Source: Candidatus Levyibacteriota bacterium (GTDB taxonomy: Bacteria > Patescibacteriota > Microgenomatia > Levybacterales > UBA12049). Taken from it: a stretch of 48,387 bases of DNA. Shown here piece after piece: positions 14,185 through 48,387 of this stretch. The notes below the pieces were generated by a model. It was not told the origin of the DNA and did not search any database. It saw only the letters and a program-made list of their open reading frames with translations. Each line of letters starts with the position of its first letter. Within the stretch, counting starts at the first letter, position 1. The translations under genes and the position numbers were made by a program. The DNA is taken from positions 1 through 48,387 of the forward strand of contig JACQKQ010000036.1 in assembly GCA_016204465.1 (NCBI GenBank). The letters are read 5' to 3'.

Positions 14185-14260
14185 GGGCCGCTAGCTCAAC
14201 TGGCAGAGCAATTCCCTCTTAAGGAATAGGTTACAGGTTCGACTCCTGTGCGGCTCACCA
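14185..14260 (+). tRNA. tRNA-Lys(CTT) with encoded CCA
   Basis: GGGCCGC/GCGGCTC acceptor, ATTCC-CTCTTAA-GGAAT anticodon arm. Confidence 0.96.
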
Positions 14261-14302: not shown

Positions 14303-15256
14303 CTAAATGGAACTTTCCATTTTAGGATGGTGGTTATTTATCATTAACCTCAATCCTTTCAGATGGGAAGCTTGTGGAAGCATTGATAGTTCGGTGTGTT
14401 TGCTTCCTATATGTTCTTTGAAATCTTTATTCCTCATTGTTCTAACTACATTTAGGTATACAGAAACATAATAGCCATCTACTTTTGTTTCTTCAGTCTG
14501 TTTTAAATTCTTCTCAGAAATTATTACATATTGTGAATCGATATCTACTCCAATATATTTTCTACCTAAGCGCTTGGCTGCGACAGCAGTTGTACCGGTT
14601 CCAACAAAAGGGTCAAAAACGATATCGCCTTCGTCTGTACTCATCAAAATTAATCTTTCTAACAGGGGTACTGGTAACTGACAAGGATGTTCATCTCTTC
14701 GTTTTTTGTGACGTATTCGATGAATATCAGACCAAACATCAGAAAGAAGCGGACCAAAGCCGTGTGCTTGATCCTTTTTGCCACCATAGTCTTTTAAAAA
14801 TTCTTTGCAGATTCGGCAACGAGGATGGGGGTATCTAATATCATAGAATTTAAAATCTTTATACGTTTTTGATTTCGTGTAATATAAAATCCCGTAGTGG
14901 TTTGGTAAAAGTGTTTTACCCATTGGTGCACCGCCAGAGTCCCAAGAAATCCAATGCCTGAAATAAGCAATTTTATTTAAGTGTTCAGCAAAATGAGTTA
15001 ACCACCGAGGAATGTTATGAACGAAAATTGAACCGCTTGGCTTCGTGATTCTTACCATCTCACTTAACCATTTATTGCACCAATTAAGATATTCTGTTTT
15101 TTCCTTTGTATCTTCGTAATTATTATACTTTTTCTTTAGATTAAAAGGTGGATCAGCAAAAACGATATCCACTGAATTATCAGGGATATTTTCCATAATT
15201 TTTAGACAATCACCTAAAATTATTTTATTTTGAAGGCTCTTAATATTTTTAGTCAT
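14303..15256 (-). CDS. N4/N6 DNA methyltransferase (beta class)
   Basis: DPPF motif IV precedes FDPFVGTGTT motif I; HPCQLP. Confidence 0.92.
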   Translation of the reverse strand: MTKNIKSLQNKIILGDCLKIMENIPDNSVDIVFADPPFNLKKKYNNYEDTKEKTEYLNWCNKWLSEMVRITKPSGSIFVHNIPRWLTHFAEHLNKIAYFRHWISWDSGGAPMGKTLLPNHYGILYYTKSKTYKDFKFYDIRYPHPRCRICKEFLKDYGGKKDQAHGFGPLLSDVWSDIHRIRHKKRRDEHPCQLPVPLLERLILMSTDEGDIVFDPFVGTGTTAVAAKRLGRKYIGVDIDSQYVIISEKNLKQTEETKVDGYYVSVYLNVVRTMRNKDFKEHIGSKHTELSMLPQASHLKGLRLMINNHHPKMESSI

Positions 15257-15258
15257 AG

Positions 15259-16275
15259 TTATTTTAAAAGTATACTTGAAATTAGTTCTTTGAAACGGTT
15301 TAGTTCCTCTTTATGAAAAGTAAAAACATCATCATATGCGCCAACCATTCTTTTAAGATCATTTTTCCTAACATACCAACCAATACCATCTACAAAACCG
15401 ATAAATAAAGCTTTGGGGTAATATTTTTTAATCAATCGAGCAATATTAATTTCAGTTTTGGCCTTATCACCCTGTCCAGAAGAGGTAGTTACAACATAGG
15501 ATGATTCGATAATAAGAATAGGTTTTCTTTGATCAGGAATAATAAAATCCATTGTACGTTTTTCTTCGTCGAGCACACCGACAAGTTTTTTAAGATCGCC
15601 GGAAACAAAGGGTATTTTCAATTCTTCCAAACCTTTTCTTACAAGCTCTGCTGGATTTCTTTCACTTTTACCAGAATACGAACCCTTTTCTTTATACCGG
15701 ATTAAAGTATCAACTAAGGATTCTATTTTAAATTCTAGTTTTTCAACACTAAGTTTTTTGAGTTCAAATAATGGTAATGCTTCTGTTAAAGAAGGCACTG
15801 TGGATCCTTCGAAGAATATATTTACAAGCCCCTTAGCAAAATTTTCATTCGATTTTATCAATCCTGCTATTTTGTTATCGCCCCATTCGCTTACTCCTCG
15901 TTCGCTAATTTCTTCCACTTCTGTTGGCCATTTATTTTTTAAAGTTAATTTGTTTAACTCTTTATCATCAATAACTCTAACAAGGGTTATTAAGCGTTTT
16001 AAGTATTCATTTGAAATACCAGTTAAAGCCAATAACGCTCTAAGCCCGTTCTCTTTATTTCTAATAAGCTCAACGAGAAAATCTCTTTTAAGACCATCCG
16101 TAGTAACCTTGTTTCTTAAAACCAATAAGGTTTCTTTGATTGATGATATATAACCTTCGTATTTTTCCTCAAAATCTCGATCATAGAGATAAAAAGTATT
16201 TTTATTTATCACCCGTTTAAACTTTAATTCTGTTGCGGGTTTTGAAATGTTAAGCATATTATTTTGCATTCTCAA
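15259..16275 (-). CDS. Type II restriction endonuclease, DpnII-like
   Basis: Lies between two MTases; MDFIIPD...IESSY PD-(D/E)XK-like core and FIGFVDGIGW; start may be 16257. Confidence 0.7.
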   Translation of the reverse strand: MRMQNNMLNISKPATELKFKRVINKNTFYLYDRDFEEKYEGYISSIKETLLVLRNKVTTDGLKRDFLVELIRNKENGLRALLALTGISNEYLKRLITLVRVIDDKELNKLTLKNKWPTEVEEISERGVSEWGDNKIAGLIKSNENFAKGLVNIFFEGSTVPSLTEALPLFELKKLSVEKLEFKIESLVDTLIRYKEKGSYSGKSERNPAELVRKGLEELKIPFVSGDLKKLVGVLDEEKRTMDFIIPDQRKPILIIESSYVVTTSSGQGDKAKTEINIARLIKKYYPKALFIGFVDGIGWYVRKNDLKRMVGAYDDVFTFHKEELNRFKELISSILLK

Positions 16276-17509
16276 AAATTAAAATATATTCTTCTTTCAT
16301 TGTATTTTGTAAGCCTTTTATTGGCTTCAAAATCTCCCATAGGAATTTAAACCCTTGTATCTTAGCTAATTCTTTAATTTTTGATTCTAGTCTTACTCCC
16401 TTCGTTTGTATGTCGTTAGTTCCAACAATAAAAATGATTTTAGCACTCTTTTTAGTAACCCTTTTTAGTTCATCTAAGACTTTATCTAGCATCTTAAAAT
16501 AAAGTTCTAATTTTTCACTAATTTCTCTACCATTTAATCCTATCATATTTTCTTTTAGTTTGGTTAGTTCGTAGCCGAGATATTCCAACTGCGGTTTATC
16601 GTTATCAACATAATCAATTGCGAAAGAGTATGGTGGCGAGGTTATCACTCCGTCAACACTATCATTCTCCAAAGGCAATGATAACGCACTACCTTTAATG
16701 ATTTGACTCTCTCCTAATTTTAAACCGAGTTTTTCTTTAGCAGATTGAAAATTCTTAATGGTGGAAATGTATCTATTTAATACAATAGGAAAGAGAATAT
16801 TTAACGATTTTGCGCTTCTGCGAGCAAAACCCATTGCGTCAAGATAGGCCAATAAAGCGATTTCATAATAGGGTCTATTTGTATCTTTACTATCTTTTAT
16901 GAAATAATCAGGTACTATTCGCTTATTTAGTTTTTCAAAAATCTTCTTACGGTCTTTAATTATCCGATCAAGTTTCTTGTTATCGAGGTTTAGCGCAAAA
17001 GTCTTAACTTTTCCCATTAAACAGCAAAATGGGCTTACGTCTACAGCAATTGAATCAATACCTAATAAATTAGCCTCTACCGATAGAGTTGCGCTACCGG
17101 ACATGGGATCAAGTACTACATTACCAGGATGAATGCCTATTATATTTAGCAATGCCCTGATCACCTGTGGGTGAAATTTACCTCTATATGGAAAAAGACT
17201 GTGTGTAGCGTATCCGGTAGAATACTTGCCGTTTAAGAAAAATGCCTTCGTGCGTAGTGAACTATTTTGGTGTATTTCTTCTAAATTTTGGAGATTACAT
17301 GTTTGATAATGAATAGTTTGAATTCCATCTACTGATTTAAAATAGGCGCTACGTCTAATCAAATCCTGTTTCTTGAGATTTTCATATTCCCAAAGAGCCA
17401 AATTTAACTCAAAAATTTCATCGGTTCCATCGATCAACTGATAGTTTGCTGGAAAGAATTTCTCGTTTATTGATTTAAAGTTCTGCATTATTTTTTTATC
17501 AAATTTCAA
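16259..17509 (-). CDS. DNA methyltransferase, likely N4-cytosine
   Basis: YRGKFHPQ, DPMSGSAT (motif I) then TSPPY (motif IV). Confidence 0.88.
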   Translation of the reverse strand: MKFDKKIMQNFKSINEKFFPANYQLIDGTDEIFELNLALWEYENLKKQDLIRRSAYFKSVDGIQTIHYQTCNLQNLEEIHQNSSLRTKAFFLNGKYSTGYATHSLFPYRGKFHPQVIRALLNIIGIHPGNVVLDPMSGSATLSVEANLLGIDSIAVDVSPFCCLMGKVKTFALNLDNKKLDRIIKDRKKIFEKLNKRIVPDYFIKDSKDTNRPYYEIALLAYLDAMGFARRSAKSLNILFPIVLNRYISTIKNFQSAKEKLGLKLGESQIIKGSALSLPLENDSVDGVITSPPYSFAIDYVDNDKPQLEYLGYELTKLKENMIGLNGREISEKLELYFKMLDKVLDELKRVTKKSAKIIFIVGTNDIQTKGVRLESKIKELAKIQGFKFLWEILKPIKGLQNTMKEEYILIFENAK

Positions 17510-17561
17510 TGCCTTTTTTTATATAAAATTAATTTTAGTTGGAGATTGTAGCTGTACTTTA

Positions 17562-17669
17562 TTATACATCTTTCAAACCAAACAAATAAGCAAATTCAGA
17601 GTTTAGACCTTCAGATAGGAATAAATTGATAAATTCTCGCAGTCTGTTTAAGATACTAAGCGGATTACA
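17562..17669 (-). repeat. Dispersed cassette-boundary repeat, copy A
   Basis: Reverse complement encodes CNPLSILNRLREFINLFLSEGLNSEFAYLFGLKDV*; 68/84 nt identical to copy D over the core (manual count). Confidence 0.9.
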
Positions 17670-17677
17670 CTAGGCTT

Positions 17678-18622
17678 TCAATCTCCTCGAGTAAATTTAC
17701 TCATAAACCTATTTTTTCCTCTATCAATGACAATGTGATCGAATAGAAGTTGACTTGCAAAATAAATAGCGCGTTCAACATCCGGAGAAACTGCTCGTAA
17801 ATCACTTAGCGCGGCGTTTGCTACTGACGTTAAAAAATGTGTAGAGTAAGGAGCAGTATTTGCTAATAATCCAAAGAGATTAGTTCCATCAGGAGAATTT
17901 TGTGCTGCGTTAAAGAAATTTTCAAATTCCCCATGATCATGTAAAGTCGCATGTACTAAGTTCCCGTCTGTAATTTTGTCATCAAGAACATCCTGCAAGT
18001 CATCAGGGAGTTGAAGCGCTACAATGCCAATCGCTTCAAATCCATCTTCTACTCGAGTTCGTACACTTTGATTTGTACTAGCTAAAATATTCCCCATAGC
18101 AGCTACTTTTCGCATCAGTAACAAACTTGAATCCTTTCTGTAGGCGAATGCGTCAGCAAAAGATGCAGTCTCTGTCCATCCATGTTGTCTTTCAAAAGCA
18201 GCATATGAGCGCCTTCTCAAATCAGCAAGTTCATAAAGAACCTCTCTTTTTTGCTCTGGACTAATTCGAAAGTCTGAAACAGCTTTTACCAAACGACTTT
18301 GCGATGGGCCAATTGCTTGTTTTGTTTCGCTCCAATTAGGAAAACTATTTGCGTTATCAATCAAATCATCAAAAAATCGTGCATATTCCCATAAATAGGA
18401 AATAGCTGGATATGCGTAGGCCGGGATAGACTTATCGGACAATTTACCAAAAAGCGGTACGAGAAGAGAGCCAACCATATACCATCTTACTCCTTTTTTT
18501 GCCAGTGCTTCTCTTGACTGAATATGTAACGATCCTACTTCACCAACATATCGTAGGAAGGAAATTCCTGTGCTAAATTTTCCGTCGGGATTGAATAAGC
18601 CTATTCTTTCGCCTTTTTTCAT
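17678..18622 (-). CDS. Isoprenoid-synthase-fold protein (polyprenyl synthase / class I terpene synthase-like)
   Basis: Two Asp-rich motifs, FFDDLID and LQLPDDLQD; all-alpha character. Confidence 0.6.
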   Translation of the reverse strand: MKKGERIGLFNPDGKFSTGISFLRYVGEVGSLHIQSREALAKKGVRWYMVGSLLVPLFGKLSDKSIPAYAYPAISYLWEYARFFDDLIDNANSFPNWSETKQAIGPSQSRLVKAVSDFRISPEQKREVLYELADLRRRSYAAFERQHGWTETASFADAFAYRKDSSLLLMRKVAAMGNILASTNQSVRTRVEDGFEAIGIVALQLPDDLQDVLDDKITDGNLVHATLHDHGEFENFFNAAQNSPDGTNLFGLLANTAPYSTHFLTSVANAALSDLRAVSPDVERAIYFASQLLFDHIVIDRGKNRFMSKFTRGD

Positions 18623-21718: not shown

Positions 21719-21803
21719 AAAACTGTGTCAGAAGTGTGAACTGTTACAAAAAGGTAATTTTCGTTGACACATGCTTACCGCTCTGATAGCATGGAGAAGC
21801 TCT

Positions 21804-22208: not shown

Positions 22209-22211
22209 GGC

Positions 22212-23171: not shown

Positions 23172-23180
23172 TATGTAGGC

Positions 23181-23393: not shown

Positions 23394-23403
23394 GTTTTGG
23401 GTT

Positions 23404-24765
23404 ATGATTATTTTTCGAAGAAGACTTTTGTACTGGCTTATTAAAGCGTATATCAAAAAATGGGGTAAAACCATCTTTCTTTTTTTTCTTTTTGGACTGT
23501 TTCTTTTTTTTGGATTGCGATACTCGTACGGAACTATCCTGCCTTTGTTGCCTATAGAACAGAGGGTAACAATTGGTATTGTGGGAGCATACAGGCTCGA
23601 TTCGCTACCTGACGATCTTTTATCCTACATTGCTTTGGGATTAACATCACTTGACGCCAACGGAACAGTAAAACCTGGGATTGCCCACTCTTGGAAAATA
23701 CAAGACAAAGGAAAAAAATATGTTTTTTCTTTACGCAAAGATTTGTATTTTAGTGATGGAGACAAAGTAACGGCGCAGACTATTTCTTATAATTTCGCCG
23801 ATACTAAAAAGACAAATAAAGATCCCTATACTATTGTTTTTGAAATAAAGGAAACTTACAACCCATTTCTTGTTCGTTTGTCGCAGCCGATTGTACGCCA
23901 AAATCTAACGGGCGTTGGGGAATATAGGGTAAAAAGATTCAAATTAAATGGAGAATACGTTGAGCATATTACCCTTGTTTCGACCATTGATCCCCGAAAA
24001 GTGCGCTCCTACCAGTTTTACAGTAATGAAGACGCGCTAAAAACAGCTTATGCACTTGGAGAGATAAGAAATGCTATTGGTCTCTCAAGCATAACATTTA
24101 ATAATAAATCATTCGACTTATTTGCCAATACTACCGTTCAAAAAGAAGTCAATACACGAAGACTTATAACAATGTTTTATAACACACAAGACGCAATGCT
24201 TTCAAGCCGAGAATTGCGAAGCGCTTTAACTTACGCCCTGCCAGATAAATTTGAACAAGGAGAGAGAAACCGGTTACCATATCCATCATCCTTATGGGCA
24301 GTTGCGCCGCAACACTCGTATGCGCAAGATATAGAATCGTCAAAAATACTTCTAAAGACAAGTGGTGTTGCTACGCAGTCAGGAGAATTAGTTTTTACCA
24401 TTAAAACCTTAGCAAAATATGAAAAAACTGCAAAGATAATTCAAGAAACATGGCAATCACTTGACATCGCAGCAAAAATAGAGGTTGTTGACAAAGTTCC
24501 TAATGATTTCCAAATTTTTTTAGGTGATTTTTTAGTGCCGCAAGATCCAGATCAGTACTCGCTTTGGCACTCTGATCAACCCAACAATATTGCTAGATAT
24601 CGCAATCAACGAATAGATAAACTGCTTGAAGACGGAAGACAAATGGAAAATCCAAGTATTGCACAACGTAAGAAAATTTACGCCGATTTCCAAAAATATC
24701 TCTTAGCCGACGCCCCCGCAGCATTTCTCTATTTTCCATATGAGTACACATTGACTAGAAAATAG
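23404..24765 (+). CDS. Membrane-anchored ABC substrate-binding protein (family 5, OppA-like)
   Basis: YVFSLRKDLYFSDG, TGVGEY, DPDQYSLWHS, NQRIDKLLEDGR; no permease or ATPase genes adjacent. Confidence 0.85.
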   Translation: MIIFRRRLLYWLIKAYIKKWGKTIFLFFLFGLFLFFGLRYSYGTILPLLPIEQRVTIGIVGAYRLDSLPDDLLSYIALGLTSLDANGTVKPGIAHSWKIQDKGKKYVFSLRKDLYFSDGDKVTAQTISYNFADTKKTNKDPYTIVFEIKETYNPFLVRLSQPIVRQNLTGVGEYRVKRFKLNGEYVEHITLVSTIDPRKVRSYQFYSNEDALKTAYALGEIRNAIGLSSITFNNKSFDLFANTTVQKEVNTRRLITMFYNTQDAMLSSRELRSALTYALPDKFEQGERNRLPYPSSLWAVAPQHSYAQDIESSKILLKTSGVATQSGELVFTIKTLAKYEKTAKIIQETWQSLDIAAKIEVVDKVPNDFQIFLGDFLVPQDPDQYSLWHSDQPNNIARYRNQRIDKLLEDGRQMENPSIAQRKKIYADFQKYLLADAPAAFLYFPYEYTLTRK

Positions 24766-24771
24766 ATTTTA

Positions 24772-24792
24772 GCTTCGCAAGGCGAGGCCTTG
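24772..24792. repeat. Short REP-like hairpin between convergent genes
   Basis: CAAGGC-GAG-GCCTTG; its first 12 nt are the reverse complement of 6907..6918. Confidence 0.45.
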
Positions 24793-24802
24793 GAACTCAT
24801 TA

Positions 24803-26086
24803 TCACCCTAAAAGAAAGGTTTTTGAGCGGAGGTTTTTGTGGTAATTTGTGGCAAAGCGGTGTGCTTCATTTCGGATGCGTTGAACAAGATGCAATGCAG
24901 GTTCTGACTTTAGTAACCGAACTTCTTTAAGATCTGGCGTCACAATAATCTCCTCTCGTTTGGCCAAACCGACATACAGAATTTTTTTGCCACTCTTACC
25001 GATTGCCTTTGCAGCAGCTCCAACTTGCGCTTTTCCGCCGTCAACAATAATCAAATCCGGCATTGGCCATTCTGTATGTTTTAACCTTCGAAAAATAATA
25101 TGCTGCATCATCAAAACGTCATTTGGTCCTTTTATTATTCTGATCTTAAACTTTCTGTACCACTTGCTGTCCTTTTCGCCGTTTGTGAACACGACGAGCG
25201 ACCCAACAGGATTTGATCCCTGAATATTTGCAATATCGTAGCATTCTATTCTTTGTAGTGTTTGAGCAGGAACGCCAGCACTCCTTAAAATCTTCACCAG
25301 CGAACGTAGTTCTTGTTCACGTTTGTCCGAAACAAGATTGGGGTTTACTTCGTACTCAAACGGAAGTGTTACCGGCTGGGTAACAAGTTCTATTGCGTTG
25401 AGCGCATTTTGAATTTTTGCGGAATTTTCAAAATCTTCTTTTTTGCTATACTCGTTACGCTCTTTTTCCAAATCTTTCTTTACTTTTGCAACTTTCCCGT
25501 CCAGAAACTGCGTAATTTTATAAATATTTTTCCGATATTCTCTTTTTTCCTTTTCTGAACCGTTAACGTTTGCGCACGGACAGAGGCCTAAGTGATGATA
25601 AAGACAATACGCTTTCGGATGATTAAACGTTGAATGAAACGGAAAGATTCGACGCAAGCTCCGAAGGACTAACCGCATTGCCGATATGTTTGGATATGGT
25701 CCAAAATACGTGCTTTTGGCGTCATCGGTTCGCCGTGCGGTAAGTACTGCCGGATATGCTTGTTTAACCGTTATACGAATAAAAGGGTAAGATTTACCGT
25801 CTGTCCAACGCACATTGTATGGTGGAATATGTTTTTTAATTATCTTTGCCTCTAAAAGGAGCGCTTCGATTTCTGATTCGACAATTGTGTGTTCAATGCG
25901 TGCAATCTTTGTGATTAGTTTTTTTGTTTTTACTCCAAAGACTTTGATGTTTTGAAAGTATGAGGCGACTCTAGCTTTAAGGTTTTTTGCCTTGCCCACG
26001 TACAGAAGCTTGCCCTTCTTGTCGTAAAATTGGTATACGCCGGGTTTTTCTGGCAATGATTGATAATATTGTGATTGTTGTTCCAA
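24803..26086 (-). CDS. uvrC: Excinuclease ABC subunit C (short form)
   Basis: GIY-YIG (PGVYQF..LYVGKAKNL), Cys cluster, UVR domain, RNase H-like IECYDIAN and DGGKAQ; ends at HRFA with no HhH2. Confidence 0.93.
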   Translation of the reverse strand: MEQQSQYYQSLPEKPGVYQFYDKKGKLLYVGKAKNLKARVASYFQNIKVFGVKTKKLITKIARIEHTIVESEIEALLLEAKIIKKHIPPYNVRWTDGKSYPFIRITVKQAYPAVLTARRTDDAKSTYFGPYPNISAMRLVLRSLRRIFPFHSTFNHPKAYCLYHHLGLCPCANVNGSEKEKREYRKNIYKITQFLDGKVAKVKKDLEKERNEYSKKEDFENSAKIQNALNAIELVTQPVTLPFEYEVNPNLVSDKREQELRSLVKILRSAGVPAQTLQRIECYDIANIQGSNPVGSLVVFTNGEKDSKWYRKFKIRIIKGPNDVLMMQHIIFRRLKHTEWPMPDLIIVDGGKAQVGAAAKAIGKSGKKILYVGLAKREEIIVTPDLKEVRLLKSEPALHLVQRIRNEAHRFATNYHKNLRSKTFLLG

Positions 26087-27830
26087 GTATGACTACACCT
26101 CCGCCTAAGCCCCAAACTGTCAGATACACTGGGAGAATTCGTATTTGTTGAGGGATAAGACTATCGCTGAAACGTATTGTAGCGATTATAGTCGTGTTTG
26201 TCAAAATTGGTGTTTTTTCAAACAGCACAGGTATCTCTCTTTTCCCATACGGAGGTATTAGTGTTACTGCTTTTTTATTCTCCTTAGGCATAAGCTTGTC
26301 ATTTCTGACAACTACCATATCCTTCGGATATGGCGTTTTTGATTTGTTGAATACAGTAACAGACCCCTTTACTGGAAAGCCGGCAATTACTGTTTTTGGC
26401 AGATCAACGAGTAGATCAACTTCTGCAGCTTCAAATGAAAAATCTTTTGTAAAGGCAACAGAAACGTCTTTTTTTTCTTCGTCACCTGGTAATTTATACC
26501 CCCCGGCCGGTATTGGATAATCACTTTGTTCGCCTTTGATAACAAACGTAAAATGGTCGAAATCAAGAGTATCAAAATAGTTAACGCCGCCAGTTGTGTT
26601 GCCCCATGTTGGGTCAACCATTATCCACGTTTGCCGATTATAGTCGTAATATTCAGGCCATGCGTGTAAAATGTCTTGCACCAAAGCAAGCGGTCGCTGT
26701 CGTGTGTTTTGCGTGTAGGCAAAACCATTGAGTTCCCGCGCAGGAATGCCGGCTGCTCGGGAAAGCGCAACAAAAAGGTCCGTAAACTCAAGACAAACTG
26801 CAGAAGACGGATCGTCAAACACGCCTTTTGCACCAACCCTGCCCTTGCTACTGGTTACTCTTGAAAAATCGTACGTTAGCTTATTGACAACGTAATTGTA
26901 AATTGCACGGGGGGTTTTTAATTCTTTTGCTAGTTTTTTCATTTCGTCTGTTGTTTCCCAATATTTACGTTGTTTTAAATATTTACTAAGCTGTATTTCA
27001 CTTAAGGGCTCTTTCTTTGGATAAAGATAAAGCTTTACTTTTCCGCTGACAGTTACATCAATTTTTTTTGATGGTAAAAGCGAATACTGCGCCAACCAGT
27101 TACCATCACTATCAACCGTTACATCAAGCGGCGGAGGACTTATGTCTTCAATTGATACATCTTGGTAATTGGTCTGTGGTGGAAGAGCTATTTCGGTGCG
27201 GATCGGAAACAAATTTTCATTTTTGAGGTGGTAATCAAGGGAAAAGGCGTATGACTGTTTATCGCCAAATCCAAGTGAAATACCCGACTTTCCAAGCTGT
27301 TCTTTGCTAAAGTCTAGTTTTAGTCCGGCACTTTCTGGCTTGACAAACGTTGGAGTGCCAAGTTTCTGTGGAACACGAACGTGAACATTAAATGACGTAA
27401 ATGCGTTTTGATCAAAAACGCCCGGAATATTTACTTCCCAAATAGACCCCTGTTTTTGCACAACATCCGGCGTATCAAAGCTAATATTGAAAAAAAGCGT
27501 ATTGTTAATACCAACCACTTCATCGTTAAACACAACGCCAACCGTATATCCGGTGGCGGATTTGTTTACTTCTGGCGCGATACTTCCACTGCCGTCTTTG
27601 GCTGTTACATTTTCTATGCGGGAAAACCCAACGTTTACTTTATAAGAAGCTACGTAATACTGGCTGTCTTTGTTGGTTAAGCTAATGTCGTACGACGCGT
27701 GCGTTGAACCGTTTTCCGATACAGTATATGTAACCTCATATGACGTTGCAAAATTTTCGGAAGCATGACTTTTTAATGGTAGAGTAAGGAGGAGAAAAAA
27801 GAATACTATAAAAAGCTTAAATATCCGCAT
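25977..27830 (-). CDS. Exported transglutaminase-like protein with C-terminal TM anchor
   Basis: Signal peptide; AVCLEFTDLF..RAAGIPARE, HAWPEY and VDPTW Cys-His-Asp triad. Confidence 0.88.
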   Translation of the reverse strand: MRIFKLFIVFFFLLLTLPLKSHASENFATSYEVTYTVSENGSTHASYDISLTNKDSQYYVASYKVNVGFSRIENVTAKDGSGSIAPEVNKSATGYTVGVVFNDEVVGINNTLFFNISFDTPDVVQKQGSIWEVNIPGVFDQNAFTSFNVHVRVPQKLGTPTFVKPESAGLKLDFSKEQLGKSGISLGFGDKQSYAFSLDYHLKNENLFPIRTEIALPPQTNYQDVSIEDISPPPLDVTVDSDGNWLAQYSLLPSKKIDVTVSGKVKLYLYPKKEPLSEIQLSKYLKQRKYWETTDEMKKLAKELKTPRAIYNYVVNKLTYDFSRVTSSKGRVGAKGVFDDPSSAVCLEFTDLFVALSRAAGIPARELNGFAYTQNTRQRPLALVQDILHAWPEYYDYNRQTWIMVDPTWGNTTGGVNYFDTLDFDHFTFVIKGEQSDYPIPAGGYKLPGDEEKKDVSVAFTKDFSFEAAEVDLLVDLPKTVIAGFPVKGSVTVFNKSKTPYPKDMVVVRNDKLMPKENKKAVTLIPPYGKREIPVLFEKTPILTNTTIIATIRFSDSLIPQQIRILPVYLTVWGLGGGVVILGTTITILSIIARKTRRIPILRQEGQASVRGQGKKP

Positions 27831-27837
27831 ATGTCTA

Positions 27838-30765
27838 TCATAGCACGTTTGCAAGGTAAAACCCTGTATATGATGCTTTTATTTTTACAATATCTTTTGG
27901 CATACCCTGTGCAACAATGCTGCCACCGTTATCGCCGCCTTCCGGACCTAGGTCAATAATCCAGTCGGCGTTTTTGATAACGTCTAAATTATGCTCTATA
28001 ACAATTACGGTATTGCCTTGTGTAACGAGCCGCCGTAACACAAAGACTAGTTTTTCTAAATCGGCAAAATGCAAACCGGTTGTTGGTTCATCTAAAAGAT
28101 ACAACGCATCTTTGCCGCGTTTGGAAAGTTCGGCAGCCAATTTTACCCGCTGCGCTTCGCCACCTGAAAGCGTTGGCGCTGGCTGGCCAAGTTTCATGTA
28201 CGAGAGTCCCACGTCTGCAAGCGTTTGCAGTTTATGCGCAAGGTTTGGTACAAACGAGAAAAAGTGAAGCGCTTGTTCAATACTCATGTCGAGTACGTCT
28301 GATATATTTTCTCCATTAAATTGAACAGACAAAGCTTCAGCATTATATTGCTTTCCCTGGCATACCTCGCAAGTCACATAGACATCCGGCAAAAATTGCA
28401 TTTCAATTTTGATTTGCCCTTCGCCTTCACACGCTTCGCAACGGCCGCCTTTCACATTAAACGAAAATCTGCCAGGGCCATATCCTTTAATCTTTGCATC
28501 TTTAGTACTTGCAAAAAGATCTCTTATGTATGTAAACGCTCCAGTGTAGGTTGCAGCATTGCTGCGGGGCGTGCGACCGATTGGCGACTGATCAATCAAA
28601 AAAACATTCCTAACATATTCTGCTCCTTGTATATCCTTAAATTTTCCAGGCTTTTCACGATGATATGTATAAATTTTTTGCATAAGCGCATGGTAAAGGA
28701 TGTCGTTGACCAATGTTGACTTGCCGCTTCCCGAAACACCTGTAACTACAATAAACTTTTTTAATGGAAACGAAACAGTAATATCTTTAAGATTATGTTC
28801 TGATGCCTTATAAATGGTTATTATTTCTGAATCTTCCGATGTGTCAACAGCATTCCACCTCGGAGGCGTACTCATCTTTACGCCTTGGGATTGTTTCGCA
28901 ATTCGCACTATCTTTTTTCCTGATAGATATTGTCCTGTTAATGAACTTGGATTACGTTTTATCTCTCCAACCGTTCCTTTTGCAACAACGTATCCTCCTT
29001 GAATGCCGGCCTTTGGTCCAAAATCAATAATATAGTCTGCTTGCTCCATTGTTTCTTTATCATGTTCGACAACGAGAATTGAATTGCCTAAGTCCCGAAG
29101 TTTTTTTAGCGTTTCAATAAGCTTGCCATTGTCTCGTTGATGAAGACCTATTGAGGGCTCATCAAGAACATACAAAACGCCTGTTAAACCGCTTCCTATT
29201 TGTGATGCTAATCGAATCCTCTGTGCCTCTCCGCCAGAAAGCGTGTGGGCACCCCGCGAAAGCGTAAGATATGAAAGCCCAACATCAATTAAAAACTGCA
29301 GCCTGTTTTCGATCTCTCGCAAAATAATTTTACCAATTTCTTGTTCCTTTTTAGAGAGTTGAATTCTTACGTCTTTTATAAATGTGCTAGCTTCGCCAAT
29401 TGCCATGTCTGTGACTTCAGCGATTGACTTTTTAAGAAGCGTCACAGAGAGTGCTTCTTTCTTTAATCGGGCACCAAGACAGGCGTCGCAGGTCTTGTAA
29501 CGCATGAATTTTTCAACTTGGGATCGGATGAAATCCGAATCAGACTCGTTGTGCCGCCGCTTTAATTCAAAAAAAAATCCCCTGAATGGTTCGTAAATAA
29601 CCGTACTTTTTCCCCACCTATTCTGGCCATGTACCTTGTACTCTTTGTCCCCTGTCCCTGAAAGCAACAGTTCTTTATCTTTTTCTGACATTTCAGAAAA
29701 CCTTTTATTTGCTGGAATATTATTTTCTTCGCAAAATGTTTTAAATGTTCTTGAAAACCATGTGTCTTGTTCCATAATATTTGGAAATGGCAGTATTCCG
29801 CCTTCATTTATAGAAAGATATTTGTTAAAAACAAGATCTTTATCGATACTAAGCACAGTACCTAAGCCATTACATGTTGGACATGCTCCGTGCGGCGTGT
29901 TAAACGAAAAAATTCGCGGTTCAATTTGCGGCAGAGAAATACTACAAAAAGGACAGGCGAATTTTTCCGAATACAAGTGATCTGTCATTTTTTTTGGCTT
30001 TTCAGGGATGTCAAACCCTTTGTCATTAATTACCGAAACAATAAGCTCGCCGTTGCCAAACCTAAGTGCATGTTCTACATCAGTAGCGATTCTATCTCTA
30101 TCGGTTTTTTTTGTAATCGTAACAGCGTCAATAACAAGCTCTATGCTGTGCTTGTTTGTCTTAATCAAAACAAACTGGTCTGTAAGGTAAAAAATTTGCC
30201 CATCAATGCGTACTTTTTTGTAGCCCCTTTTTTTTAGATCGGAAAATAAGTCTATATACTCTCCTTTTCTGTCTTTTACCAGAGGCGCGAGTACAAGCAC
30301 ATTTAAAGGTATTGCGGTTGATTCTCCCAATTTGTTATGAAAATCCATAATAAGGTTTGTAATCTGCTCTTTTGAAAGCCTTGCAATCTCCCTGCCGCAA
30401 TTTGGGCAGTGCGGACAGCCGAGTCTTGCAAAAAGCAAGCGAAGATAGTCGTAAATTTCAGTAACTGTGCCAACGGTTGAGCGGGGATTGTGCGACGCAC
30501 CTTTTTGGTCAATTGAGATTGCCGGAGACAAGCCTTCGATAACATCAACGTCCGGTTTTTTCATAACGCCTAAAAATTGTCTGGCATAGGAGGAAAGCGA
30601 CTCAACATAGCGGCGCTGGCCTTCAGCATAAATCGTGTCGAAGGCAAGAGAAGACTTCCCGCTGCCTGAAAGCCCTGTAAACACAACGAGCTTGTTTTTG
30701 GGGATTGTAAGATCAACATTTTTAAGATTGTGTTCTCTGGCACCTTTGATTGTAATTTTATCCAT
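27838..30765 (-). CDS. uvrA: Excinuclease ABC subunit A
   Basis: Two ABC ATPase domains ([28 protein letters not shown]) and zinc fingers. Confidence 0.99.
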
Positions 30766-30827
30766 AAATTTGAACTTATTAGTTTATCAGATTTGCGTTA
30801 CTTTGTAAACTCCGATAGAATTCGTTT

Positions 30828-43026: not shown

Positions 43027-43497
43027 ATGAAAATACAAATAAATCTCATTGTTTTTGGTTTGGTAATACTATTTATTTCAGTAGCTATATTATATTTTAC
43101 ACAAGGAAAAAGTAGTGAAAAGGCGCTACAGCAAGTTCCTCAAGTACAAACTGCAAATCAAAATGAATTAGAGACCCAGACATCTCAAGTTGAAAATATA
43201 ACGATCAAGGTAACACCACAGGATATTTCCAAGTCTTCCAGTGAGTGGAAATTTGAAGTTACCCTGGACACTCACTCCGGGTCCTTGGATCAGGATCTGC
43301 AAAAAACTTCAGTTCTTTTGGATAATAAGGGAAATCAATATAAACCTACTGCATGGGAAGGCAGCCCCGCTGGTGGACATCATCGAGAAGGGGTATTAAA
43401 GTTTAGACCAATCAGCTCAACTACCATTGAGTTAAAGATTATTGATTTTGTGGGTTCTCAATCCCAAATTTTCAAATGGACACTTAAAACTGACTAA
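43027..43497 (+). CDS. Uncharacterised exported His-motif protein
   Basis: N-terminal TM; LDTHSGSL and GGHHREG motifs. Confidence 0.8.
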   Translation: MKIQINLIVFGLVILFISVAILYFTQGKSSEKALQQVPQVQTANQNELETQTSQVENITIKVTPQDISKSSSEWKFEVTLDTHSGSLDQDLQKTSVLLDNKGNQYKPTAWEGSPAGGHHREGVLKFRPISSTTIELKIIDFVGSQSQIFKWTLKTD

Positions 43498-43574
43498 GTG
43501 AATTTTTCAAATTATTCCTGTCTGACGGTCTAAACTCCGAATTTGCATATTTATTTGGCTTAAAAAATGTCCAA
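43491..43574 (+). repeat. Dispersed cassette-boundary repeat, copy B
   Basis: Encodes LSEFFKLFLSDGLNSEFAYLFGLKNV; the stop of the last copper-cluster gene lies inside it. Confidence 0.88.
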
Positions 43575-43608
43575 GTAAGTACATCAGGAATAAAGATCAT
43601 TTGCGGAA

Positions 43609-46392
43609 TTATTGTTTGAGTCTGCTCAGGATTTCTCCCAGCTTTTTTATTTCCTCTCCGTATCTTCCCCAGTTTCCTTCACGTTGTGCATTGATGGCGG
43701 ATTGATAGGCTTGGTTTGCCTCACGAAGCAGGTTTTCTCCGGTTATGTCAGCGGACTTTTCTGCTCTTTGGAGAGGCACTCCTCCTGAAAGTCCAGTTTG
43801 GCCTTCGGCAATGCCGAAGATTTTAGCCAAACCTGCGTCCAATGTTTCTTCCATTGCGATTTTGTTTCCATACGCGACAATTACCCGTTTAAGTTCCGGA
43901 ATTTTCCCCGTCGTTGCTTTTAGGTAAAGCGGGCGGACATAGACCAAAGATTCTTCAATTGGAATAACCAGAAGCGGACCCTGAATTACCTGGGAACCCG
44001 TTTGATCCCATAGGGATATTTGCTGGCTGATTTGTGCGTCCTGACTGATCCGGCCGATTATTTGCTTAGGTCCAAACACTAATTTGTCTTTGGGGAAGCG
44101 ATAAACGACAAGCTTACCATACTGTTCTTCGTCGTTTCTAGCTACCATCCACGCGGAGAGGTTGTCCTTAGCTTTTGGAGTAAACGGCAGCATCAGGATA
44201 AACTCTTCTTCATCTTCATTCGGAAGCTTCATGATCATGTGGCGCGGGTCCATGGTTTGAGTTTCACCTTCTTCGGTAATGGCCGGAATTTCCCATTGGT
44301 CTTCTTTGTTGTAAAATACTTGCGGATCTTCCATGTGATAGGTAGTATAAATTGCAGTTTGTAAAGTAAAAATGTCTTCGGGATAACGAATATGCTCAAT
44401 CAGACTTTTGGGCATATCGGAAAGTTTATGAAAAGTATTTGGGAAAATGTTAGCATAAGTTTTGATAATCGGGTCTTCGGGATCGCTTTGATAAAAATCG
44501 ATCGACCCGTCGTAAGCGTCTACAACTACCTTGACTGAATTCCTAATATAGTTTACTCTGCTTCCGCTAATTAGCAATGGCTGAGAATAGGGATAGCGGT
44601 CAGTTGACGTGTAAGCGTCAAGAATCCAACGCAATCTGCCGTCGCTTATCACAAGGTACGGGTCGCGGTCATAGGTAAGAAATGGAGCAATCTTATTAAC
44701 CCTTTCCTTTATATTTCGATTATAAATAATACGGCTTTTATCCGTAACATCGCCGGATAAAAGCAATTTGAGGGATGCAAATCGCAGGGCGTAGAAGATT
44801 CGGCGCAACGGAGAATTAATTTCAACTCCGCCGTGTCCAGCGTATGTCGTATAGACGTTTTCTTCCCCCTTGGGGTAATCGAATTCCCGAGAGTTGGTCT
44901 TGACGATGACATAATCATTAAGAATTTCCCCATAGTAAACTTCCGGCCTATTAATTTCAAGCTCATTGACTTCGGATTTTGGAGGCAAATCTTTAACAAA
45001 CAACACCGGCAGTCCTTCTGGAGTGACTTGATTTACAGGTCCTGCGGCAACTCCATACCCATGTGTAAAAGTAAGCTTTTCATTAATCCAATTTTTGTTG
45101 GGTAGGCTATTTGAAGCCAGTTCTCTTGGCGAAAGCATAATTTGGCGTATCTCATCGTTAATCTTGTAACGGTCATTGTCAACAGACGCGAATTCATAAT
45201 AGGTTCTAATTTCCTGGATTTGCGAAAAAGTCGAGAGAAGCGGATCCCTGTCCCAAAGCCTAACATTCTTAATTGTTAAGTTGTTAGCAGTTATGTCGGA
45301 TGCGGTAATTGGTTTATCCGCTGTTATTTCCCTCTCTTCCACTTTGTCCAAACCGTAAGCCATGCGGCTGGCATTAATATTGTTTTTGATAAAAAGAGTT
45401 TCTTTAACGAGTTCGTTGGGAGCAACAACAAATTTCTGGAAAATCGAGGGCATGGTCGATGACACAATCCCCATTATTATAGTCAGAAAAATTGCGCCTA
45501 AAAGTGGGGCTATTCTTCCGAAAATACCGTAAAATAGAGCTAAAATTGCGGATAAACCATAAATAAAAATAGATACGCGTAAGATAGGCATTATTACATT
45601 GACATCCGTGAAAACAGCGCCGAATACTACGCCTGTTTGACTGGTTAGCAAATCGTAAAGAGATAGGCGCGTTCCAATGGCAGTTGTCGTAAGAAAAAGA
45701 AATAATAGAATTCCGACGTGTAATCGGGCTTTCCTACCAGTCTGTATTGAGATAGCCGAATGGTGTTCGTTAAACCTTTTTGATTTTACGATTAATCGCG
45801 ACAGTTCATATTTACCAAAAATGCTTGAAAAATTTAGACTGCCTCTCAAGATATAGGTGATGCTGCAACCAATAAGCGATAGTATGATAAGAATTTTTAT
45901 AATTCCAAGTCCAAAAGAGTAAACGGGAAGAGAAAATACATAAAATGATATATCGAGACCGAATAACGAGTCTTTTTGGCCAAAAGGCACGCTTGAAAAA
46001 AACTTTAATATATCACTCCAGTTGCTCGCGGCAATAAAACCGAAAAAGATAGAAACAATAAGGTTAATAACAATACCAATTTTTCTGAATAGACGATTAT
46101 TTAAGCTTACCGGTTGACTCGTACCGATTATGGATTCGGGAATGTTTACGAACCATGGAATTTTGGATCGCAGGGCGATAAAGAAGTTAGACAAAAGAAA
46201 AACCGCCGCGAAAACTCCCGTTGCCGTTCCTATAATAATTTTCGCACTTATGGATTTGATGAAGATTCCGGTAAATCCTACTTCTTGGTACCACCACCAA
46301 TCCGTAATCAGGGAAACAATGTTTAATAGGAAAACAAAAAAAACAGCTATTATGCTTAAAATTGCCCAAGAAAAAATCTTAGTAATGCTCAA
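43609..46392 (-). CDS. UPF0182 family membrane protein
   Basis: DWWWYQEVGF, NVRLWD, DNDRY, YTHGYG-like FTHGYG, NYIRNSVK, YVRPLYL; start uncertain (TTG 46392; ORF open to 46467). Confidence 0.92.
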   Translation of the reverse strand: MSITKIFSWAILSIIAVFFVFLLNIVSLITDWWWYQEVGFTGIFIKSISAKIIIGTATGVFAAVFLLSNFFIALRSKIPWFVNIPESIIGTSQPVSLNNRLFRKIGIVINLIVSIFFGFIAASNWSDILKFFSSVPFGQKDSLFGLDISFYVFSLPVYSFGLGIIKILIILSLIGCSITYILRGSLNFSSIFGKYELSRLIVKSKRFNEHHSAISIQTGRKARLHVGILLFLFLTTTAIGTRLSLYDLLTSQTGVVFGAVFTDVNVIMPILRVSIFIYGLSAILALFYGIFGRIAPLLGAIFLTIIMGIVSSTMPSIFQKFVVAPNELVKETLFIKNNINASRMAYGLDKVEEREITADKPITASDITANNLTIKNVRLWDRDPLLSTFSQIQEIRTYYEFASVDNDRYKINDEIRQIMLSPRELASNSLPNKNWINEKLTFTHGYGVAAGPVNQVTPEGLPVLFVKDLPPKSEVNELEINRPEVYYGEILNDYVIVKTNSREFDYPKGEENVYTTYAGHGGVEINSPLRRIFYALRFASLKLLLSGDVTDKSRIIYNRNIKERVNKIAPFLTYDRDPYLVISDGRLRWILDAYTSTDRYPYSQPLLISGSRVNYIRNSVKVVVDAYDGSIDFYQSDPEDPIIKTYANIFPNTFHKLSDMPKSLIEHIRYPEDIFTLQTAIYTTYHMEDPQVFYNKEDQWEIPAITEEGETQTMDPRHMIMKLPNEDEEEFILMLPFTPKAKDNLSAWMVARNDEEQYGKLVVYRFPKDKLVFGPKQIIGRISQDAQISQQISLWDQTGSQVIQGPLLVIPIEESLVYVRPLYLKATTGKIPELKRVIVAYGNKIAMEETLDAGLAKIFGIAEGQTGLSGGVPLQRAEKSADITGENLLREANQAYQSAINAQREGNWGRYGEEIKKLGEILSRLKQ

Positions 46393-46443
46393 CTTGCGCT
46401 TAGTATAGCAGTGGGTATAATCTTGCGTCAAGCTGAATTTCTG

Positions 46444-46551
46444 TGTGAGCCCAACGATACATTGCACAGACTTCGAGAATTCTTCAAATTATTCCTTTCT
46501 AATGGCCTAAACTCTGAATTTGCTTATCAGTTTGGCCTAAAAGATGTATAG
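46444..46551 (+). repeat. Dispersed cassette-boundary repeat, copy C
   Basis: Encodes CEPNDTLHRLREFFKLFLSNGLNSEFAYQFGLKDV*; 71/84 nt identical to copy D (manual count). Confidence 0.9.
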
Positions 46552-46627
46552 CAAAGTACAATAGCTTTCTTTAACTAATTTTAACTATAAGGCATTGACA
46601 AATGGTCTTATTTTTGGTTAAATACAC

Positions 46628-47236
46628 TTACTTACCCCGTATGTTTACCATACGGGGCTTTTTTATGCTTATAATCTTCAACTGCCTCGGCAATTTTCTA
46701 TCTGACTTAAATTTATTTGAGAAATTAAGTACAAAGGCTTTATCTGCTTTATATGCCATTTCCAACGAAAATCTGTTAGGAAGAAAAATAGCATGAGTTG
46801 GGATTTTAAGCATTTTGACTATTTCTAAAGGATAAATAAGATCAGCATCACCAGTCATAATTACAATCTGATTACAGTTGCCAAAGAAAATATCTTTTAC
46901 GATATCCACTGATAAATGCACATCTACACCTTTTTCTTTTCCAGAAGTAGGTGAGCGATGACCTCGATAAAAAGTAACACCTTTAGTATTTCTTACTTCC
47001 CGATACAATAAAGCTTCAGCAGCAATTAGCTTTTTCCTGTCCTCAGTTAATTTTGTTCTGTTTTTCTGATTCATGTAGGAGGCGTAGAAAAGGATACTAT
47101 CCACCGCAACTAACTTTTTGATTTCTTGGATAAGAAAACTAAATGAAAGGTGTTTATTTGGGCCAAACAATTCATTCTGTCCTGCAAATAAATTTGTTCC
47201 ATCAATGTAGAGATGAGTTTTCTTTTTAGCGGACAT
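46628..47236 (-). CDS. NYN-domain (LabA/DUF88, PIN-like) nuclease
   Basis: YIDGTNL, EKGVDVHLSVD, TGDADL. Confidence 0.9.
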   Translation of the reverse strand: MSAKKKTHLYIDGTNLFAGQNELFGPNKHLSFSFLIQEIKKLVAVDSILFYASYMNQKNRTKLTEDRKKLIAAEALLYREVRNTKGVTFYRGHRSPTSGKEKGVDVHLSVDIVKDIFFGNCNQIVIMTGDADLIYPLEIVKMLKIPTHAIFLPNRFSLEMAYKADKAFVLNFSNKFKSDRKLPRQLKIISIKKPRMVNIRGK

Positions 47237-47339
47237 GAATTAATTGTAGCACTTAAGGGGAGAAAATATATTTTCGATCCTTGCGGCCAAGATGAATCAC
47301 CAAATCTGATGTCAACATTCGCCCCCTAACAGTAAGGCT

Positions 47340-47369
47340 TGTCCCGCCGAAGCCATCAGGCGAAGGAGG
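47340..47369. repeat. REP-like palindromic motif
   Basis: GTCCCGCCGAAGCCATCAGGCGAAGGAGG; shares the CGAAGGAGG tail with 6064..6072. Confidence 0.45.
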
Positions 47370-47467
47370 ATACTTTCACCACAAGAATCATTCGGTAGAA
47401 ATATTATACATCAACCACAATCCAAATGTTTGTCTTTACATATAGGTTTTGCTAAAATGCTGTTTAA

Positions 47468-48099
47468 ATGAAAGAACAACTAAGCCAAAAGGCTCGTGTT
47501 TTTGATTTAGAGATACTCTGATAGGTCGTGAAACTGTTACCCGCGTATCGGGATTAGTTATAGGTAGTATACATTCACATCGTTTACCTAATCTAACAAT
47601 AGCTGATTTGTCTCAACTTAATCTTAATCACAGTCGTGTTGATATTCCCATTAATGGGCTTAAAGAAAGAATATCTTTTGAATTTCATGCAAGAAGAAAA
47701 GTTTATTCGGGTGTGGAGCATGAATTTAAGAAATTAGTTGCCGAGGGAACAGATATTTATGGAAATACTGGACGATCACATAAAGGTCAATGGGTTGACA
47801 TGACGGAGCAAACACTACACAGAGGAGGTGTTGCTGAATATTTCAAAGAAATTTTTTATACACCCGATGGAGTTATAACTGCTGTAAGTAAGGCACACGC
47901 GTTACTAAAGCTAACAGAATTGTATAAAGATGTTGAATTTGACGATGACGACCCACGCACCGCGCGTTTTATAGCTAAGATGTTTCCTTACATTACAGTC
48001 AACTTAGTCCAACATGGACCTGCGGGATTACTTGTATCAAGAAGTGAGTTGGATGAACTTCCAAATCTTAGAAGAGTGGCAGTTTTTAGTAGCAGATAG
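47468..48099 (+). pseudogene. HAD-superfamily phosphatase with a 1-nt deletion in motif I (or an assembly error)
   Basis: ATG 47468 reads MKEQLSQKARVFDL; GAT TTA GA GAT ACT CTG becomes DLDDTL if one base is restored. Downstream frame carries NTGR (motif II), SK (III) and FDDDD (IV). Confidence 0.7.
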
Positions 48100-48158
48100 T
48101 TGCAAAGTCAATAAATCTTCTTTTAACTTCTTTCATTTATTTTTAACAATTATTAACT

Positions 48159-48266
48159 GGTTATCCGGACGATACTCTCCACAGACTGCGAGAATTCGTT
48201 GAATTATTCCTATCTGATAGCCTAAACTCTGAATTTGCTTATACATTTGGCCTAAAAAATGCATAA
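48159..48266 (+). repeat. Dispersed cassette-boundary repeat, copy D
   Basis: Encodes GYPDDTLHRLREFVELFLSDSLNSEFAYTFGLKNA*. Confidence 0.9.
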
Positions 48267-48387
48267 TAAAGTGCATTAACCTCTTTTTATTTTTACAAAT
48301 TTGTTATGATGATTACATTGATTGACTATACTATTTTGGGGTATGGCAAAATATATGGCAATATGGTAATATATTTATGAATATATC

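Follow-up and report, generated by a model that had tools for sequence, protein, structure and literature searches.

The 48,387-nt contig JACQKQ010000036.1 (assembly GCA_016204465.1) of a Candidatus Levyibacteriota bacterium, here called the window, raises the question of why a repeat of ~120 bp, which we named ELEM, carries a short reading frame and recurs at the junctions between cargo genes. The window corresponds to the entire contig C16 in an 881-kb assembly of 50 contigs (G000). We propose that ELEM is probably the far-end attachment module of cassettes inserted by a serine recombinase, and not the detached tail of such an enzyme. Below, G-numbers are genomes of the order, L-numbers are fetched loci, P0004 is a protein-search entry and LSR-K is one family of large serine recombinases. 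ELEM was surveyed in 245 genomes of the order (103 genera), 58 genome loci and 80 metagenome loci.

In the proposed mechanism, small integrative cassettes of roughly 0.7-3 kb would be stacked one behind another at tRNA-Lys 3' ends in Microgenomates, which belong to the candidate phyla radiation (CPR), and a sister subfamily appears to use tRNA-Gly. Each new unit would enter between the tRNA 3' end and the previous unit, and the older units would be pushed outward and decay there, as copy B and the broken HAD gene of the window may illustrate. The junction would be marked by GTGAGCC, a copy of the tRNA acceptor 3' end. The enzyme is most likely the tRNA-targeting LSR-K; full elements would carry its gene at their tRNA-proximal end, and it would act in trans on cassettes devoid of a recombinase. 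The remaining ~100 nt of ELEM would encode a helical micropeptide, separate from the recombinase and without a fixed start codon.

Array anatomy, tRNA anchoring and cargo

At least 124 distinct ELEM copies were found in Microgenomates genomes and metagenomes. Within the order, ELEM is present in 38 of the 245 genomes and in 30 of the 103 genera, always within short open frames, and the genome and metagenome loci are nearly all labelled Daviesbacteria, Levybacteria, Blackburnbacteria or other Microgenomates. The copies share a single orientation in 152 of the 153 loci scored for it, with two to five copies in 43 loci and a median spacing of 1657 bp. Among the 50 loci with a tRNA beyond the array, the nearest one past the last copy is tRNA-Lys (TTT or CTT) in 44; in all 50 it lies on the opposite strand, 0.5-7 kb away, with its 3' end toward the array. 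The other side has no tRNA in 135 of 152 loci. These comparisons showed that the arrays are one-directional and anchored on a tRNA gene. The array often sits between tRNA-Lys and a core block with genes for a transglutaminase-like protein, UvrC, a membrane protein and a substrate-binding protein.

ELEM opens with ~9 nt (GTGAGCC) that match, in reverse complement, the acceptor 3' end of the tRNA, and this edge is the only stretch that ELEM and the tRNA were seen to have in common. Directly 5' of many copies, including copy D of the window, we found a conserved right end of 35 nt (motif 1) containing the palindrome GTTAACAATTGTTAAC. Of 140 ELEMs, 27 have motif 1 in front and 20 have motif 2, a second type of right end; of 36 reverse-complement tRNA-Lys genes, 11 follow motif 1 and 8 follow motif 2. 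The same right-end motifs before both suggest that the ELEM edge and the tRNA end are equivalent. Because these motifs precede ELEM as well as tRNA-Lys and GTGAGCC matches the tRNA end, an array can be read as host, ELEM-cargo-right end, ELEM-cargo-right end, reverse-complement tRNA-Lys. Two other identities of motif 1 were tried and rejected, a decayed recombinase stub (a hidden Markov model, HMM, of recombinase tails finds nothing there) and a gene starting in it on the minus strand ('MKEV'; these open reading frames, ORFs, are short and unrelated). In L040, L069 and L071, short tandem pieces such as GGTGATCGAGCTGAGCTCGATAATCACCAAGCTGAGCTTGGTGAGCC stand just before the reverse-complement tRNA-Lys and repeat GTGAGCC, perhaps as minimal scars left at junctions.

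Similarity between loci breaks at ELEM, with 574 high-scoring segment pairs (HSPs) starting within its first 40 nt and running into the cargo, and ~100 HSPs ending at its 3' edge. The unit between copies C and D of the window was aligned with locus L032 of another genome. The upstream flanks are unrelated; the alignment begins at the ELEM edge and spans ELEM, the NYN gene, the HAD-like gene and motif 1 up to the next ELEM. Identity in the NYN gene is ~95% at the nucleotide and 92% at the amino acid level, and the HAD-like proteins are 81% identical (79% with the homologue in L070). The XRE gene beside the ELEM copy on contig C19 of G000 is 87% identical to one in L032. The core proteins of L032's genome are 27-31% identical to those of G000, and those of the ELEM-bearing genome of L070 are 32-57% identical. 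The units were thus shown, by comparison of the loci, to have been transferred horizontally between distant genomes. The earlier note, made from the window alone, had taken the copies for junction markers of serially accreted cargo, in an array lacking attC and IntI. The one-orientation arrays anchored on tRNA-Lys, the similarity breaks at ELEM and the recurrence of the C-D cargo between two ELEMs in a distant genome with unrelated flanks bear out this part of it.

Neighbouring genes were surveyed in the 58 genome loci with 10-kb flanks. The recurrent cargo comprises Fic, Gp49/HigB with XRE/HigA, BrnT/BrnA, NYN and GIY-YIG proteins and a Bro/KilA-N-like protein, the latter named from sequence alone; restriction-modification genes are also present. 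Cargo genes are found on both strands and mostly converge on ELEM. The UPF0182 gene has a patchy distribution (11 of 61 relatives, 7 of these 11 also having ELEM); it adjoins ELEM in G000 and G038 and lies ~1.3 kb from ELEM in G008. Hairpin repeats of the type CTGAGCGA...GAGTCGAAG (L035 7315-7500 and 9950-9994; L058 3600-3646 and 7102-7300) and a small GIY-YIG gene (L058:3305-3580) were observed as cargo or junction material.

Such shuffling of units might also proceed without any dedicated recombinase. ELEM would then be an independent micro-gene or homology patch, and the arrays would be rearranged by homologous recombination or gene conversion after DNA uptake, through exchange between ELEM copies and the conserved tRNA-Lys flank. 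The purifying selection on the frame, the HSPs that end also at the 3' edge, a divergence of ELEM exceeding that of the adjacent cargo, truncated copies that begin at many positions and the lack of a recombinase in most arrays are all compatible with it. However, the copies are only ~80-85% identical over 110 bp, a poor substrate for homologous recombination, and their strict orientation, the precise 5' edge at GTGA and the common right-end motifs point to site-specific joining. Recombinase genes, moreover, end exactly at the ELEM 5' edge. We consider this explanation unlikely.

Coding constraint on the ELEM peptide frame

The reading frame of ELEM is 35 codons long. In 61 distinct copies from related genomes, the column entropy by codon position was 19.3, 16.1 and 31.8, with four-fold codons free at position 3. 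The ratio of non-synonymous to synonymous polymorphism (pN/pS), calculated on 112 distinct intact copies, was 0.375 in the peptide frame compared to 0.94 and 0.85 in the other two frames. The synonymous bias first noticed among the window copies thus survives in the larger alignments. A stop or a frameshift was observed in only about 10 of 124 distinct near-full copies, ~92% being unbroken. Subfamilies differ by conservative replacements (...FLSDGLNSEFAYxFGLKNV, ...FLSDGLLPDLVYVLGLKNV and ...FLSMKILPDLIWWLQPELASKMP), as in GLNSEFAY, GLLPDLVY and ALTADFIY, and AlphaFold models of 50 sequences gave a two-helix peptide with a mean predicted local distance difference test score (pLDDT) of 80. By these measures the ELEM frame is coding and under purifying selection. 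We suppose that the peptide is translated and may act in recombination or in the maintenance of the cassettes.

A second constraint was apparent in the alignment. Low column entropy extends ~9 nt past the stop, confirming the AAGTRCA motif that had been picked out after the stop of the window copies, and third positions are conserved at ACAGACTG and in the last four codons, like AAGTRCA itself. This pattern shows a constraint at the DNA level that appears superimposed on the coding signal. Where an in-frame TTG is present, it is supplied by the sequence joined on the left, that is by the right end of the neighbouring unit, and we think that expression of the peptide may depend on this left partner. 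ELEM resembles a conventional small protein gene in its open frame under purifying selection, but differs from it in having neither a conserved start codon nor a ribosome-binding site.

ELEM might instead be non-coding, as a structured small RNA, a pseudo-tRNA, a terminator or insulator, or a repeat of the repetitive extragenic palindrome or miniature inverted-repeat transposable element (REP/MITE) type, the frame being incidental. Its 5' end does resemble a tRNA acceptor end on the opposite strand, a small covarying hairpin (ATGYA-N8-TRCAT) spans the stop, and the third-position conservation at ACAGACTG and in the last four codons, together with the variable start, would also be explained. 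Against this, RNAalifold gave no consensus fold for the 61 copies (-1.2 and -0.6 kcal/mol on the two strands), an Rfam scan of the window returned tRNAs only and nothing at ELEM, and ARAGORN called no tRNA at the window copies. The low pN/pS is restricted to the peptide frame, the variation follows codon degeneracy, and the subfamilies diverge by conservative replacements. This possibility is largely refuted and we regard it as extremely improbable.

Palindromic GC-rich insertions of 21 and 30 nt were seen within the peptide frame in L021, L083, L060, L063 and L074. They keep the frame (DPDLIGADG, PASPELQRGE) and have 5-nt duplications (CTGAC) at their borders; in L022 the frame is broken by a related insertion of 19 nt. 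These insertions look like tiny hairpin elements landing in frame.

Serine recombinases at the ELEM edge

The earlier note had suggested that the copies are cut-off 3' ends of one gene family, most plausibly of a site-specific recombinase with its att site within the ORF. ELEM would then be the last ~35 codons of a gene containing attP, integration would leave this tail behind as a scar, and the coding signature would derive from the intact gene in its excised form. A precedent exists in the SSV1-type integrases (SSV1, Sulfolobus spindle-shaped virus 1), which split their own gene on integration. We searched for the parent gene that this explanation calls for. The peptide profile gave 36 matches among 1.84 billion representative proteins, none of them a full-length parent. 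The peptide-bearing matches are of 39-167 aa with the peptide at the C-terminus in nearly all; they have unrelated N-terminal parts and would be chance ORF calls, and in ~5 of them the frame continues beyond the usual stop. Three longer matches (1132, 1816 and 2112 aa) align only over short repeated stretches. Among 5.8 billion clusters, searched with a 537-aa chimeric query scored on the peptide region only, no protein of 295-940 aa with the peptide was found; IMG/VR held no full-length protein with it, and searches of Pfam and PDB with the peptide gave no match. The ELEM profile showed no similarity to 27 large serine recombinases (E > 0.3). An isolated LNSEF match to one tRNA-Lys recombinase, also at E > 0.3, was the only sign of a homology between the peptide and a recombinase tail, which we rejected.

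The genes found at the ELEM edge bear on the same question. P0004, the only longer ORF that includes the peptide, is a truncated large-serine-recombinase tail that runs in frame into ELEM (L146), and its relatives are proteins of 500-560 aa present in 46 of the 245 genomes. In 25 of 30 loci of the order (L090-L119), the recombinase ORF extends directly into a tRNA 3' end in reverse complement (tRNA-Leu, -Glu, -Lys, -Arg or -Pro). The serine-recombinase gene therefore ends at the att junction on the tRNA in this order, and the last 10-25 residues of these ORFs therefore depend on the state of integration. About half of these recombinases read the tRNA end as (G/S/C)(D/E)P, in the same frame as the first codons of ELEM. 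Two full-length LSR-K genes, L121:1795-3315 and one in G012:C3 (L200:18259-19905), abut the ELEM 5' edge at the same nucleotide. Both translate ELEM in a different frame, ending after 6-9 codons, and the enzyme of G019 uses that frame as well. Only the P0004 stub, one of the three abutting recombinases, enters ELEM in the peptide frame, which is therefore the chance expectation.

The P0004 stub, the shared first-codon frame and the 44% of ELEM copies with no start codon of their own are what a detached tail would predict, and the order's serine-recombinase ORFs, like those of SSV1-type integrases, cross the attachment site into the tRNA. Contrary to that prediction, none of the three collections has a protein of more than 167 aa ending in the peptide, the full-length neighbours use a different frame, the 27 recombinases are dissimilar, and the tail HMM finds nothing upstream of 163 of 165 ELEMs, with remnants before only 2. 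Unlike in SSV1, the peptide is not a recombinase C-terminus, and the enzyme is of the serine and not the tyrosine type. By these searches ELEM is not the recombinase's own tail. This suggestion of the earlier note did not stand, and we now judge the detached-tail origin quite improbable.

The same genes implicate a recombinase as the enzyme that would act at the ELEM 5' edge, and we infer that LSR-K catalyses the insertions and that the cassettes would move as circles. An island with ELEM at its far end and LSR-K at its tRNA-proximal end was found in G019, where a SurA-like host gene is followed by an ELEM variant, cargo of 10.8 kb (including AAA_21/RloB), an LSR-K gene and a reverse-complement tRNA-Lys(TTT). 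The G019 protein has the Pfam domains Resolvase, Recombinase and Zn ribbon, and its ORF reads into tRNA-Lys(TTT). For the sister subfamily, G006 has an LSR-K relative reading into a reverse-complement tRNA-Gly(TCC), with an ELEM of the APDE type 12.7 kb upstream of it, and in G008 an ELEM of the APDE subtype lies 1.4 kb from tRNA-Gly. By hand count, 10 of the 29 genomes that have an LSR-K relative (at least 42% identity) contain ELEM, compared to 28 of the 216 that have none (p about 0.005 by a rough normal approximation). Serine recombinases are present in 47 of 61 relatives, therefore a helper is usually available. The single intact large serine recombinase of G000 (C11:12812-14404, ~520 aa) has no detected tRNA or ELEM adjacent, and its tail differs from those of P0004 and LSR-K.

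A tyrosine recombinase, either an integron-like IntI or Xer on dif-like sites as in integrative mobile elements exploiting Xer (IMEX) and pdif modules, could also move the units. The genome encodes two tyrosine recombinases, the layout resembles integrons or arrays of pdif modules, and a short inverted repeat is found at the ELEM 3' end. However, these two genes are on contigs C35 and C39, away from the window, and no recombinase of the tyrosine type, nor of any other, is among the recurrent neighbours of the arrays in the 58 loci. ELEM has no attC-like fold, the cargo lies on both strands with its own promoters (a promoter-like site was seen for UPF0182), and the recombinase genes touching ELEM are serine recombinases. 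We hold a tyrosine enzyme to be very unlikely.

Several observations weigh against ELEM being the attachment module of LSR-K-driven cassettes. A recombinase gene or stub was present at only 3 of about 165 ELEM junctions and at none in the window islands, and 20 kb of sequence upstream of the G012 LSR-K gene contained no ELEM. We found no empty-site polymorphism or clean indel between related loci, no contig with identical ends indicative of a circular form, and no excised circle. In the C-D/L032 pair ELEM is more diverged (~80% identity) than the cargo of the same unit (95%), and within same-cargo groups it shows more changes per column than the cargo. This suggests that crossovers or gene conversion occur also inside ELEM and not only at its edge; a selection test on these groups is confounded, the history of ELEM being different from that of the cargo. 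Of 108 intact copies, 48 (44%) lack an in-frame ATG, GTG or TTG in the stretch from the preceding stop to the conserved part, and no Shine-Dalgarno sequence was noted at ELEM copies. The tRNA-Lys(CTT) of the window has neither motif 1 nor motif 2 next to it. Finally, serine integrases are not known to reuse an already hybrid site (right end/tRNA), nor are they expected to, and stacking therefore needs a further property.

Related systems and the two stacks of the window

Staphylococcal cassette chromosome elements (SCC, including SCCmec) form composite islands at the 3' end of rlmH (orfX). They are moved by the Ccr large serine recombinases and include ccr-less pseudo-SCC; recombinase-less members presumably move in trans, and short direct repeats with attachment cores of ~15 bp mark the junctions. 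The ELEM arrays share with SCC the tandem stacking of cargo at one site, the direct repeats at each junction, the association with a large serine recombinase and the recombinase-less members. They differ in targeting a tRNA and not the end of a protein gene, in their 120-bp coding module, and in lineage and recombinase family. With tRNA-targeting large-serine-recombinase elements in general, the arrays have in common a specific tRNA 3' end (44 of 50 arrays, and island 1 of the window). The recombinase gene at the att edge is found in G019, L121, G012:C3 and as the stub L146, and is absent from the window and from ~162 of 165 junctions.

The resemblance to integrons lies in the one-directional array of small cassettes rich in toxin-antitoxin genes, with one repeat per cassette and a fixed insertion end. 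Unlike in integrons, no IntI-type recombinase was found beside the arrays in the 58 loci, and ELEM is conserved in sequence with no consensus fold on either strand, whereas attC sites are imperfect palindromes conserved in structure and not in sequence. The genes occupy both strands and UPF0182 has its own promoter-like site, whereas integron cassettes are mostly promoterless and co-oriented; the arrays have a tRNA anchor, and the associated recombinase is of the serine type. The logic of the arrays is integron-like, yet every integron-defining feature tested fails. A bolder and doubtful proposal is that Microgenomates run a serine-recombinase analogue of integrons at tRNA-Lys and tRNA-Gly. 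One- to three-gene cassettes without a recombinase would be captured, stacked and exchanged between distant genera, and the module would double as a peptide gene dependent on the integration state. The peptide, expressed from the cassette's own right end in the circle or from the recombinase 3' end in the full element, would be an accessory or directionality factor.

Tycheposons of Prochlorococcus target tRNA 3' ends, where later arrivals push earlier ones inward and the remnants degenerate; their cargo is made of niche or defence genes, and a minority use a large serine recombinase (bioRxiv 10.1101/2020.12.28.424599). Partial copies of the tRNA punctuate these islands, and the majority of the elements have their own integrase (tyrosine type in 910 of 937) and replication genes (bioRxiv 10.1101/2020.12.28.424599). 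The tRNA 3' target, the stacking, the decayed remnants and the defence-type cargo are common to both systems. In contrast to tycheposons, ELEM matches the tRNA over only ~9 nt, the rest being peptide-coding, and most units are of 1-3 kb and integrase-less. Such tRNA-anchored islands and the SCC composite islands appear to be the nearest published systems. Our literature search on serine-recombinase tRNA islands in the CPR found no paper.

The genomes of CPR bacteria are tiny, and few ways in which they exchange genes have been recognised; the ELEM cassettes are one concrete and widespread route. Genes for defence, toxin-antitoxin and membrane functions pass from genus to genus in these small units, which enter a fixed hotspot at tRNA-Lys. 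For the units that lack a recombinase, mobilisation in trans by a large serine recombinase is probable and can be tested, and the triplet of LSR-K, ELEM and tRNA-Lys is a candidate new site-specific integration system. Selection at the protein level on an attachment module, with neither a parent gene nor a fixed start codon, would be unusual for the flank of an att site. ELEM also accounts for contig breaks in these metagenome-assembled genomes, and it predicts what follows the end of the window contig.

The features of the two window stacks are listed in Table 1. The 35-nt ELEM core pattern matched four times in the window and not once in 100 shuffles, which together with nhmmer confirmed all four copies reported by the earlier note. 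Its order of copper cluster, B, UPF0182, C, NYN and HAD, D was correct, and the reading frame it gave applies to copies A, C and D but not to copy B.

Table 1 Positions of the tRNA anchor, cargo genes and ELEM copies in the window
Feature	Position	Strand	Basis or remark
tRNA-Lys(CTT), anchor of island 1	14185..14260	+	ARAGORN, Rfam; 3' end toward island
Island 1 cargo, type II restriction-modification set	14303..17509	-	Pfam
N6/N4 methylase, island 1	14303-15256	-	Pfam
DpnII-like endonuclease, island 1	15259-16275	-	Pfam
Second methylase, island 1	16259-17509	-	Pfam
ELEM copy A, far end of island 1	17541..17680	-	nhmmer; ORF 17562-17669 including stop
ELEM copy B	43469..43592	+	nhmmer; in-frame TGA at 43491, own stop lost
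UPF0182 membrane-protein gene, unit B cargo	43609..46467	-	Pfam, E = 8e-288
ELEM copy C, left end of NYN/HAD unit	46435..46570	+	nhmmer; ORF 46444-46551 including stop
NYN-domain gene, unit C cargo	46628..47236	-	Pfam; 92% amino acid identity to L032:10185-10793
HAD-like gene, unit C cargo	47469..48099	+	frameshifted; open only at 47608-48099
Motif 1, conserved right end of unit C	48123..48157	+	TTAACTTCTTTCATTTATTTTTAACAATTATTAAC
ELEM copy D, left end of next unit	48152..48283	+	nhmmer; ORF 48159-48266 including stop

In island 1, copy A lies 3.3 kb from tRNA-Lys(CTT) on the opposite strand, the same arrangement as in the 44 of 50 related loci, and an in-frame TAG stands immediately 5' of its first codon. 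Copies B, C and D form a second stack, interrupted by the contig end. Copy B is its outermost and oldest copy and is decayed, with in-frame stops and the terminal stop gone. Copy D is 121 bp from the contig end, where the following unit is cut, and no other contig of the assembly continues the sequence past it. Among the 37 tRNAs detected in G000, tRNA-Lys(CTT) is the sole tRNA-Lys, and no tRNA-Lys(TTT) was found in the assembly. We predict that tRNA-Lys(TTT) is probably located just beyond copy D, in the unassembled stretch. The core block seen beside the arrays of relatives (770-aa protein, transglutaminase-like protein, UvrC and substrate-binding protein) corresponds to window positions 21800-30800. 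It adjoins neither stack in G000, and the context of the hotspot has therefore been rearranged in this genome.

The promoter-like site of the UPF0182 gene, at 46431-46402 in a promoter scan, is inside the right end of unit B. Downstream of copy C, a terminator-like hairpin (CCCCGTATGTTTACCATACGGGG followed by a T-run) was observed on the + strand at 46635-46665, 85 nt after the stop, and is 100% conserved in L032; it would terminate a transcript through copy C. The HAD-like gene has a 1-nt deletion near 47510 in its DxDxT motif (GATTTAGA-GATACT compared to GATTTTGATGACACT in relatives), which points either to a pseudogene or to an error in the assembly; L070 has the intact homologue, of 210 aa. 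A fifth copy of ELEM was found in G000 at C19:445-568, with a 1-bp deletion that breaks the frame. It is of the APDE subtype (region 141-568) with a converging XRE/HigA-like gene next to it, and this 2.9-kb contig is probably another broken array.

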